DNA of 64,000 nucleotides from a virus (taxonomy: Duplodnaviria > Heunggongvirae > Uroviricota > Caudoviricetes): positions 32,001-96,000 of the IMG/VR virus record IMGVR_UViG_646311924_000007; one strand, written 5' to 3'. This document shows, piece by piece, positions 29,528 to 30,990 of this stretch. Below the pieces are notes generated by a model. The model made no database searches and had not been told where the DNA came from. It worked only from the letters and a program-made list of their open reading frames with translations. The stretch's first letter is position 1, and each line of letters begins with the position of its first letter. A program made the translations under genes and the position numbers.

Positions 29528-29991
29528 AGGGTTTTCGTCATGGTTAGCGACTTTGCGGCGGTTTAGAAACTGACCATTAAAGTAAATGCAAACGATGATC
29601 TGATGATGGTAGCGGCCTAAGAAGCCAGATGCCATGGGGTATGAGTCGTCCCCCGTCAAAAAATCGACCGCAGAGTGTCCCCGTCTGTGTATTAGGGAAC
29701 GGGGAGGCACAACAGGTAAGGGCGCTGGTGTGATTAACCAGATGAACGAGAAGGGGCCATCTGTTGGTCAGCGTCCTTTCCTGTTGCGTTTTCTTTTCAG
29801 CGTAACAGCGGTGCTTAACAGCACTTTGGGTACAGTTCCACGAATTTACGGGTATATCCCGTCATGCTGAAGGCGCTAATCACGCTGGAAGCCAGGGTTA
29901 TGCATCCCCTGTTACCGAATTGCAGCCAGGGCGCGGTGCGCCGAAAAGCATACGGAGGTGGAAGCCCTCGCCGGAGACGTACCCGGCAAGT

Positions 29992-30066
29992 GATGGTGTA
30001 GCTCAGCGGTAGAGCAGTTGGCTGTTAACCAACTGGTCGGTAGTTCGAATCCACCCACCATCGCCA
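29992..30066 (+). tRNA. tRNA-Asn (anticodon GUU)
   Basis: Hand-folded cloverleaf: acceptor GATGGTG/CACCATC, anticodon loop CTGTTAA, T-loop TTCGAAT, discriminator G, encoded CCA. Confidence 0.75.
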
Positions 30067-30071
30067 CTTTA

Positions 30072-30158
30072 GGGGAGTTAGTCCGTAGGGGTAGCGGGGT
30101 AGACTGTAAATCTACTGTCATTGCGACTCGGGTGGTTCGACTCCATCACTCCCCACCA
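30072..30158 (+). tRNA. class-II tRNA-like gene, anticodon GUA (Tyr-like)
   Basis: Acceptor GGGGAGT/ACTCCCC, anticodon arm GTAGA-CTGTAAA-TCTAC identical in loop to E. coli tRNA-Tyr as recalled, long variable arm, encoded CCA; D-arm region slightly irregular. Confidence 0.55.
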
Positions 30159-30162
30159 CATT

Positions 30163-30238
30163 GCCGATTTAGCTCAGTTGGTAGAGCAGTCGCTTTGTAA
30201 GCGAATGGTCAGCGGTTCGATCCCGTTAATCGGCACCA
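30163..30238 (+). tRNA. tRNA-Thr (anticodon UGU)
   Basis: Acceptor GCCGATT/AATCGGC, D-arm TAGCTCAGTTGGTAGAGC, anticodon loop TTTGTAA, T-loop TTCGATC, encoded CCA. Confidence 0.7.
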
Positions 30239-30240
30239 AC

Positions 30241-30990
30241 ATAACAGGTAAGAGCATTCTCCCTTATGGGGCCTGGCTTAAATGCATCGAGTGCTCTTAC
30301 CGTTGTGATGAAGTGCAGATCTTAGAAGCAACCAGAAGATAAGCATCTGGCTTCACAACATAAACCGCAGGAACGACCAATAAACGGTAGTCCGTATGGA
30401 GAACACCCCGTTGAGGAAGAGGCCTGGCCGGAACCGTAACCGGCGACTGGTAATGTGTGTAAATGGAGCGAAATATGTGGGCGTTTAACGGGATACGGGT
30501 TGTAACAGCGATTATTAACGGCGAACTTAAGTATTCACGTTTCGAGACAAATGAACGTGATGGGAAATGTATTGGTGTGCGGTTAGTAAGAGAATACGCA
30601 TAACAACTACAACGTTGAGAACACTGGCGTAACGGGGTCATATCCCAATCTACGAATAAATGTTGCGTTGCCGCGTGACAACCAGTGTTCTCAACATTGT
30701 GGTGAATGCACAGGCTGATGTGCCGCAACTACAGTAGTGCGCGCTTTGCGGGGCTTGCTACAACCCTGTGTCGGAGTTCAGCACCGACCATCACAGTTTG
30801 ATTCTCTGGCATGAGCATAACGCTGAAATAAGTCCAGTCTGGTGCGGTCTGATCACCCGCCGTTAGCTCCACGAAACGGAGCACGTAACAGGTAAGAGCA
30901 TTCTCCTGTAACGGGTTCATATCCCAATCTACAGGTCCACCAAGAATGCTCTTTCCGTTGCGGTGAATGCGGCTAAGCGCACGCGGGGAA
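30241..30990 (+). repeat. three paralogous long-hairpin modules flanking the tRNA genes (possible structured RNA)
   Basis: 10-14-bp stems at 30247-30301, 30614-30695, 30891-30956; shared internal GTAACGGG(G/T)TCATATCCCAATCTAC and 3' tail GTTG(T/C)G(A/G)TGAA(G)TGC; stems differ in sequence but stay paired. Confidence 0.45.

Follow-up and report, generated by a model that had tools for sequence, protein, structure and literature searches.

Repeated two-part RNA units in the ban-operon leader of a P1-like phage-plasmid and their possible role in RNase III-type processing

What are the long hairpins beside the transfer RNA (tRNA) genes of a P1-like phage-plasmid, and for what are they conserved? 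The window studied here comprises the 64,000 nucleotides (nt) at positions 32,001 to 96,000 of the caudoviral IMG/VR record IMGVR_UViG_646311924_000007 and was assigned to a P1-like phage-plasmid by sequence comparison. The region of interest (29300-31110) is 99.3 % identical to phage vB_EcoM-Ro157c2YLVW and 100 % identical to two E. coli plasmids, and P1 shares about 95 % identity with the window across the common parts. The curated annotation of P1 describes this stretch as the leader of the ban operon. A sequence-only reading of the window, made without database searches, had proposed three hairpin modules and a degenerate fourth around the tRNA array, selected for structure and not for sequence. 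The hairpins are a real, RNA-level, non-coding feature. They are "stalks", one half of a repeated two-part unit, the two halves of which are found again in more than 200 loci of phages and prophages. Judged from sequence and predicted folds, there is about an even chance that the units act as elements of RNase III-type processing and as a scaffold in the leader.

Stalk hairpins in the window

Folding energies compared with shuffled sequences confirmed four long hairpins on the plus strand, close to where they had been expected (Table 1). The energies of M1 to M4 range from -32.6 to -46.3 kcal/mol with z scores of -4.0 to -5.7, in each case better than all 200 dinucleotide shuffles; the reverse complement folds worse for all four. 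The single values were -32.6 kcal/mol (z -4.5) for M1, -46.3 kcal/mol (z -5.7) for M2, -38.0 kcal/mol (z -5.1) for M3 and -40.4 kcal/mol (z -4.0, 0/200 shuffles) for M4, the minus strand of which reaches -32.9 kcal/mol. The arms of M1 and M3 are 85 % identical across 33 nt. The M1 stalk matches Klebsiella phage MK54 with 91.5 % identity across 81 nt, and this combination of stalk and insert type recurs in unrelated phages in several different flanking contexts; the stalk type of M2 was also found in one further locus (L009).

M2 and M3 carry, as had been noticed, nearly identical internal elements within unlike outer stems that are both paired. The 25-nt element GTAACGGG(G/T)TCATATCCCAATCTAC has 96 % identity between the two copies (30629-30653 and 30908-30932), and the arms are 91-93 % complementary (91 % over 22 nt in M2). 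The assignment of this element to all modules held for M2 and M3 but not for M1, which has an unrelated insert, nor for M4. The latter has in common with M1 and M3 the start of its 5' arm, but neither the internal element of M2 and M3 nor the arms shared by M1 and M3. The "T-arm-like hairpin" within the element did not stand up either: it consists of a 3-bp stem with the loop UUCAUAU, is reported neither by ARAGORN nor by the Rfam tRNA model, and is deleted in Ro157c2YLVW. A cloverleaf or a T-loop UUCRANY on a 5-bp stem was not found in the element, and ARAGORN and RF00005 gave only four true tRNAs.

Table 1 Positions of the stalks, the stem-closed domains and the tRNA array in the window
Feature	Position	Strand	Description
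Stalk hairpin M4 (divergent copy)	29706..29790	+	arms CAACAGGUAAGGGCGCUGG / CAGCGUCCUUUCCUGUUG; 5' of the tRNA array
tRNA-Asn(GUU), tRNA-Tyr(GUA), tRNA-Thr(UGU)	29992..30238	+	same strand as the modules; ARAGORN, Rfam
Stalk hairpin M1	30240..30307	+	clamp-type arms ACAGGUAAGAGCAUUC / GAGUGCUCUUACCGUUGUG; begins 2 nt 3' of tRNA-Thr
Domain B1	30302..30359	+	closing stem GUUGUGA / UCACAAC; hairpin CCAGA-AGAUAAGCA-UCUGG; 5' strand overlaps the 3' arm of M1
Stalk hairpin M2	30606..30703	+	arms of different sequence, ACUACAACGUUGAGAACACUGG / CCAGUGUUCUCAACAUUGUGGU; insert with the element shared with M3
Domain B2 (canonical)	30697..30796	+	closing stem UUGUGGUG (30697-30704) / CAUCACAG (30789-30796); junction AAU
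Stalk hairpin M3	30884..30962	+	clamp-type arms as in M1; insert contains GUAACGGGUUCAUAUCCCAAUCUAC
Domain B3 (STnc100-like)	30957..31086	+	closing stem UGCGGUG / CACCGCA; AAU; T-run 31081-31086

A second, stem-closed domain

Directly 3' of the stalk lies a compact domain, here called domain B, which is closed by a stem of 7-9 bp and in its canonical form contains two hairpins with complementary (kissing) loops. The conserved 3' "tail" of the sequence-only reading is a real repeat but not a tail, as it forms the 5' strand of this closing stem. The canonical layout starts with the 5' strand (e.g. GUUGUGGUG), the junction AAU and hairpin 1 (GCGCA-GGCUGA-UGCGC), continues with a variable part of 40-200 nt, and ends with hairpin 2 (GCCGG-AGAUCAGCA-CCGGC) and immediately thereafter the 3' strand (CACCACAAC). 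The last 6-9 nt of the stalk 3' arm double as the 5' strand of the closing stem, thus the two helices compete or stack. In the window the halves are arranged as M1 then B1, M2 then B2, and M3 then B3. B2 has the canonical form, with hairpin 1 GCACA-GGCUGA-UGUGC (30708-30723), a variable middle and hairpin 2 GUCGG-AGUUCAGCA-CCGAC (30770-30788), the loops of which are complementary. B3 has the terminal hairpin CCGGG-AGGAA-CCCGG (31057-31071) and ends in the T-run, and its closing stem covaries: two other loci (L033, L101) have GUUGUGGUG / CACCACAAC in the place of UGCGGUG / CACCGCA. A homologue of B1 is located directly upstream of the N-like gene of the P22-like phage SPN9CC, with the compensating closing stem GAUGCGAUG / CAUCGCAUC.

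Pairing of the closing stem was examined across the family. Hairpin 2 was present in 109 of 135 units; the 9 nt following it paired in at least seven of nine positions with the 9 nt preceding AAU in 97 of these 109, compared to a mode of 3 paired positions in shifted registers. The partner was located in this comparison without the use of complementarity, and 49 different strand sequences were involved. In alignment A1, which has B2 as its last row, the closing stem was 97.5 % paired, eight of nine pairs were changed on both sides, and none of 500 shuffles reached the observed value. The loops covary as well, GGCUGA occurring with UCAGC and the sole loop-1 variant GGUCGA (two units) with UCGAC. 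The interior is highly conserved: the exact 19-mer AAUGCGCAGGCUGAUGCGC was detected in the genomes of more than 120 representative species, most of them alpha-, beta- or gamma-proteobacteria.

Two identities proposed for domain B were rejected. Its topology is cloverleaf-like, but no more than 30 of 95 units encode a CCA after the closing stem and CAA is found just as often, which speaks against a tRNA-like domain. The P22 small RNA "P22B", considered as an expressed homologue of B1, has an unrelated published sequence.

Distribution and conservation of the two-part unit

A stalk consists of a stem of about 20 bp with one small bulge or internal loop and encloses an insert of almost any sequence. 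Unrelated temperate phages of Klebsiella, Salmonella, Citrobacter and Cronobacter contain stretches that match pieces of the region. The pattern of 3' arm and "tail" was present in more than 120 viral contigs with 111 distinct instances, in which conserved arms (CACAACAGGUAAGAGCAUUG ... CAGUGCUCUUUCCGUUGUGGUGAAU) surround inserts 45-110 nt long. These inserts comprise dozens of unrelated sequences, and some of the types were met again in different flanks. As this pattern forces conservation of the 3' arm, a second search was anchored on the small hairpin after the tails (GCGCAGGCUGAUGCGC). It gave 113 matches, 77 of them with RUGAAU directly before the hairpin, and the preceding arms were of any sequence.

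At least 33 stalk types with 3' arms less than 70 % identical were distinguished, each pairing over 16-25 bp with its own 5' arm. The median duplex energy was -31 kcal/mol for cognate against -14 kcal/mol for non-cognate arms, 30 of the 33 arms preferred their own partner, and for 20 stalk types at most one of 100 shuffles matched the individual value. Selection for RNA structure over sequence, postulated from two modules of the window, is therefore supported, and more strongly at the level of the family than within the window. G-U pairs outnumbered A/C mismatches by 81 to 5, and the plus strand was the more stable one in 31 of 33 stalks; the constraint thus acts on the transcript of the tRNA strand.

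The sequence-only reading had missed that the modules are not confined to P1 and its tRNA array; the leaders of many phage operons contain copies of the same unit. A tRNA gene was located no more than 1.5 kb from 28 of 64 clamp-type units, in each case on the strand of the unit, compared to 10 % for random positions; in the set anchored on hairpin 1 this was so for 13 of 79 units. Proximity to tRNA genes is thus frequent, not defining. Other units have Q-like genes upstream and an endolysin downstream; a clustering of the neighbours revealed CI-like repressors, Q-like proteins and endolysins as recurrent. The neighbours of the most divergent units are small open reading frames (ORFs) of unassigned function. 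The E. coli K-12 prophage DLP12 contained no copy of the unit.

Minus-strand reading frames

The annotation of P1 places two minus-strand ORFs, plp and upl, in this region, and a 143-amino-acid minus-strand ORF is present at 30297-30728 of the window. Conservation of this frame as protein had been named in advance as an observation against the RNA interpretation. It was not observed. P1 Plp (125 amino acids) and the ORF of the window are identical in the first 41 residues and unrelated thereafter. The two versions of the region differ by a 157-nt indel and 28 gap positions, and the lengths of the indels are not multiples of three. In P1, plp overlaps tRNA-Thr in antisense, deletion variants have lost the start codon or most of the plp and upl ORFs, and no Pfam family matched the minus-strand ORFs. 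PHROG families exist for the Upl-like ORF, which were probably built from near-identical P1-like annotations. We see next to no chance that the region represents a protein gene, decaying or real.

The ban-operon leader

In the P1 annotation, C1-controlled promoters with the operator Op72 (Pban/Op72) are located at the end of dmt, and the leader contains a "dicF-like region", tRNA-Asn, tRNA-Thr, plp and upl; tciABC, tRNA-Ile2 and ban follow 3' of the leader. The tRNAs for Asn, Tyr and Thr are presumably on one transcript with the hairpin modules. In the window, the mRNA downstream of the leader contains the genes of a membrane protein and of an SPFH lipoprotein, together with tRNA-Ile2 and ban.

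The "dicF-like region" corresponds to positions 29435-29530, and its end is formed by a strong hairpin that resembles a terminator and has a T-run (GCCCAUCUUCGGGUGGGCGUUUUUUU). The hairpin (29500-29530) is situated between Pban and everything downstream, which implies read-through or a separate small RNA (sRNA). Between tRNA-Asn and tRNA-Thr, an insertion has added a tRNA-Tyr(GUA) gene with a long variable arm (30072-30158). P1 lacks this gene and Ro157c2YLVW has it; it scored 41.9 bits in Rfam, below its neighbours. The 157-nt insertion relative to P1 (30449-30605) sits exactly between the terminal hairpin of a unit (GGCCGGAACCGUAACCGGC) and the 5' arm of M2, and contains a plus-strand ORF of 42-46 amino acids with a GGAG Shine-Dalgarno sequence (30463/30475-30603) and a match to phrog_8025, a family of unassigned function. 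In the place of P1 tciABC, positions 31112-32156 encode a membrane protein of 78 amino acids (phrog_1130) and an SPFH/Band-7 lipoprotein of 275 amino acids (PF01145, E 1e-30), with a tRNA-Met/Ile2 gene (CAU) 3' of the latter at 32184-32259.

Relation to known RNAs

The unit is also found in phage lambda. A clamp-type stalk begins 7 nt after the T-run of tR' (about 44,787-44,862) and is followed by the closing stem GUUGUGCUG / CAGCACAAC. Across ACAGGTAAGAGCATTGAGT, its arms agree in 19 of 19 positions with the type of the IMG/VR relatives; they are also close to those of M1 and M3. The lambda late leader is Q-dependent, whereas the ban operon of P1 is early and C1-controlled. The title of Daniels et al. 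1988 (Virology 167:568; cited in PMC7547250) refers to RNase III sites in lambda late RNA, which may lie in this stalk.

In the lambda-like pL leaders of five loci (L212, L163, L180, L227, L236), the interval from nutL (boxA, boxB) to the start codon of the N-like gene contains a canonical domain B. The same slot is filled in lambda itself by the N-leader stem GCUUUGGGGUGUGUG / CACACACCACCAAAGC. The lambda N leader shares with domain B of the other pL leaders homologous flanks (AAAGCAGAAGGCUUUGGGGUGUG... / ...CACACCACCAAAGCUAACUGACAGGAG) and a covarying closing stem, but its interior is devoid of the canonical kissing hairpins. The 5' strand of its stem is the "boxC"-like GGUGUGUG, which corresponds to the supposed tail of the modules; we take this to be the "boxC" word of the nut regions. 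The hairpin between nutL and the ribosome-binding site of N is an RNase III site, and cleavage of the lambda N leader by RNase III was reportedly described by Kameyama et al. in 1991 and by Wilson et al. in 1997 and 2002. Unlike the lambda N leader, the copies in the window have no adjoining nut site or N gene, are preceded by a separate stalk, and number three to four in a single leader that also contains tRNAs.

The third domain of the window resembles an sRNA family. B3 (30959-31078) was found by the Rfam model STnc100 (RF02076) with 38.0 bits (E 3.1e-6, model positions 31-147 of 206), and the P1 copy with 33.4 bits; neither reached the gathering threshold of 47 bits. Shared features are the closing stem, the AAU, a hairpin, and a terminal CCGGG hairpin abutting the 3' strand. 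B3 has the STnc100 architecture and would therefore work in the manner of STnc100, but it is no certified member of the family. The genes of STnc100 and PasD, two Hfq-dependent prophage sRNAs, are located between Q and the lysis (holin) genes; the two sRNAs were recently reported to have a common fold and to differ in their seeds (bioRxiv 10.64898/2026.05.13.724894). STnc100 has an Rfam family, whereas the stalks, B1 and B2 of the window gave no Rfam match. The covariance search suggested by the sequence-only reading, run with gathering and with permissive thresholds on the window and 22 related loci, yielded only the tRNAs, the sub-threshold STnc100 matches and spurious microRNA hairpins. In the window and in 18 further loci, neither the stalks nor the canonical domain B matched an Rfam family, and a full-text literature search returned no paper with the conserved words of the unit. 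As far as we found, the breadth, the modularity and the conserved core of the unit have not been described before. A single covariation-supported architecture without an Rfam family joins the P1 region wrongly annotated as plp/upl, the "boxC" word, the hairpins after lambda nutL and tR', and STnc100/PasD, and it occurs widely in temperate phages of alpha-, beta- and gamma-proteobacteria.

More distant likenesses exist in processed and in ornate RNAs. The RNase III stems that flank 16S and 23S rRNA and the RNase III sites of T7 early mRNA are long helices with a small internal loop, as are the stalks described here. Both the rRNA-operon stalks (processing model in PMC4807359) and our units bracket a structured "cargo" within an untranslated polycistronic transcript that contains tRNAs, and have a boxA-like word by or in an arm. 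In our units, however, the cargo is of variable sequence and 25-200 nt long, and the arm sequences are not conserved. GOLLD and ROOL are large ornate phage RNAs that often adjoin tRNA genes and use kissing loops. The apparent likeness lies in a phage-borne structured non-coding region of hundreds of nucleotides beside tRNAs with kissing loops; the region of the window differs in being an array of small independent units and not one large fold, and it had no Rfam match to either.

Possible function of the units

If the units are processing elements, the long stalk helices, together with extended or stacked closing stems, would be cut by the RNase III of the host. Cutting of the long untranslated leader would yield precursors of the tRNAs, small stable RNAs and the mRNA that follows; the small stable RNAs would be the stalk insert, domain B or both, would accumulate in the manner of STnc100 or PasD, and the inserts might act in trans. 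The helices have suitable dimensions. RNase III substrates have about 20 mostly Watson-Crick base pairs, with a small loop allowed, and the stalks have 16-25 predicted base pairs with one bulge or loop. In units of the pL type the closing stems are extended to 16-17 bp. Processing at the stalks would account for the release of phage tRNAs and sRNAs from the operon leaders that contain them, and the unit would then represent a natural portable scaffold for arbitrary small RNAs.

Several points weigh against this assignment. Among the members of the family, RNase III cleavage is reported for lambda alone. Closing stems of 7-9 bp are by themselves too short for RNase III unless extended or stacked. 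A processing function alone leaves the conservation of the domain B interior, with its 19-mer in more than 120 species genomes, unexplained, and there must be another reader of this sequence; the near-invariant kissing core probably binds something, and the extreme degree of its conservation points to a binding partner. Individual copies are dispensable, as concluded from variants with broken stalks: in two P1-like viral contigs (L032, L109) the 5' arm of M2 and the shared element are joined to the 3' half of M3 and the arms are non-complementary, and in the closest relative, phage Ro157c2YLVW (L002; 2440-2900), a 13-nt deletion has removed the GGGUUCAUAUCCC mini-hairpin of M3. A part of the stalk statistics was moreover based on arms found by complementarity, which the shuffles (20 of 33 significant) offset partly.

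Among the other explanations, a shield against Rho or an insulator of co-transcriptional folding seems rather unlikely. Long leaders (tRNA arrays, N and late leaders) would be packed into helices that leave Rho no unstructured site for loading, and the tRNAs would fold independently, without any cleavage. In favour of this, the units are always located in untranslated stretches of long operons, arms and inserts may be of any sequence provided that the arms pair, and units and tRNAs are arranged head to tail at distances of 0-4 nt. We know of no N- or Q-like antiterminator for the P1 ban operon, despite the terminator-like hairpin and T-run at 29500-29530. Lambda-like leaders, however, are already Rho-resistant by means of N or Q, the near-invariant hairpin loops, the AAU junction and the fixed overlap of stalk and closing stem are not explained by shielding, and the member in the lambda N leader is reported to be cleaved by RNase III. 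A cassette platform for trans-acting sRNAs would assign the payload to the insert or to the variable middle of domain B, e.g., as a base-pairing sRNA or as a tRNA-fragment mimic directed at host nucleases, on a scaffold of stalk and domain B. Discrete insert types do recur in different flanks, several inserts contain T-arm-like GGUUCGAnUCC hairpins, STnc100 and PasD combine a common fold with different seeds and targets, and B3 has the terminator end that is typical of Hfq-binding sRNAs. Nevertheless we regard a platform as unlikely, as inserts are lost without obvious harm and none of them matches a known RNA family; it also overlaps with RNase III processing and does not exclude it.

Antitermination of the nut or rrn type would require that the common stalk 3' arm (CAGUGCUCUUUCC) is a boxA loading NusB/NusE and the next hairpin an analogue of boxB. 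The word UGCUCUUU indeed matches the core of the rrn boxA, the order of boxA-like word, spacer and hairpin resembles nut sites, and units lie in antiterminated operons. But the boxA-like words are buried in a perfect helix and are missing from M2, M4 and most other stalk types, which have unrelated arms, and pL leaders have a genuine boxA and boxB upstream of domain B and apart from it. A conserved single-stranded boxA (GCUCUUUAACAA-like) followed by boxB was not found: the word is restricted to the clamp type and paired. The diversity of the arm sequences largely refutes this explanation, and we rate it as highly improbable. Hardly more probable is a DNA-level or selfish element, be it an inverted repeat similar to miniature inverted-repeat transposable elements or to attC sites, or short homologies for the recombination of modules, with hairpins that have no function as RNA. 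It would account for units at mosaic boundaries, such as the 157-nt insertion with its small ORF, for the M2/M3 recombinants, and for pieces of the region scattered among unrelated phages. It is contradicted by the strand asymmetry (81 G-U against 5 A/C; plus strand more stable in 31 of 33), the co-orientation with tRNAs in 28 of 28 cases and the compensatory changes, which affect three helices and one loop-loop contact. Integrase or transposase genes were not among the recurrent neighbours of the units, and the combination of strand-symmetric repeats and a recombinase that characterizes integron attC sites and miniature inverted-repeat transposable elements was not observed.

A tmRNA-like tag module

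Upstream of M4, at 29530-29700, a module was noticed that resembles the messenger part of transfer-messenger RNA (tmRNA). Its tag frame (29588-29620) reads GCA AAC GAU GAU CUG AUG AUG GUA GCG GCC UAA and encodes ANDDLMMVAA. The GCA resume codon comes after UAAAU, and a covarying hairpin comes after the stop codon. The frame is without a start codon as far back as the in-frame stop, which is located eight codons upstream. Nine tag variants were collected from other phages, all of 10 codons and of the form AN(D/E)x...(A/V)A, e.g., ANEEMYLAVA, ANDEQFLAVA and ANDDVVLMAA. The ssrA tag of E. coli is ANDENYALAA, and the similarity to the module is limited to the resume region. The frame has the features of a tmRNA tag frame, i.e. 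no start codon, a GCA resume codon, a tag of the type AN(D/E)...AA and a stop by a hairpin. A tRNA-like domain, which in tmRNA has an acceptor stem with G3:U70, a T-arm and a CCA end, was not found at the module, ARAGORN reported no tmRNA, and the Rfam model tmRNA_permuted scored 24.1 bits against a threshold of 47 (24 and 26 bits overall, weak matches). In a duplex search between the module and E. coli tmRNA, 19 of 25 and 2 of 25 shuffles did as well. The literature search revealed no tmRNA-like element of P1 or lambdoid phages. From its sequence, the module looks like a tmRNA messenger module without the tRNA half; with it, a possible interference of phages with ribosome rescue can be tested directly in the P1 model.

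A more far-reaching combination of these elements is conceivable, though we consider it doubtful. The ban, N and late leaders would be a modular "RNA island", an RNase III-processed scaffold that displays exchangeable small-RNA cassettes beside tRNAs; one cassette would be the tmRNA-like messenger module supplying an altered tag, and the kissing core would be the binding site of a host or phage factor. If so, such leaders would represent a bacterial analogue of polycistronic primary microRNA clusters, and the altered tags, ending in VAA, AVA or MAA and not in LAA, would indicate that phages tamper with trans-translation.

Further features of the window

The dmt gene (26278-29319) encodes a Dmt methyltransferase of 1013 amino acids, compared to about 754 for the annotated gene of P1. 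An intein-like insertion lies within the C5-methylase domain at the catalytic motif GGTP|C...VVHN|CQAFS, with Pfam matches to Hint_2 (amino acids 77-126) and LAGLIDADG_3 (amino acids 298-361). Two identical matches to the ALIL pseudoknot, a frameshift signal of the IS3 family of insertion sequences, were obtained at 43234-43350 (+) and 62729-62845 (-) with 121.5 bits each; the inverted pair about 19 kb apart suggests two insertion sequence copies that bracket a segment. The window also has two C4 antisense-RNA loci, at 8470-8676 (with a1/b1 targets at 8470-8522 and 8591-8676) and at 61402-61591, the second of which is preceded by an isrK-like RNA (61402-61479, 61504-61591). A sok antitoxin RNA is located at 12128-12302.

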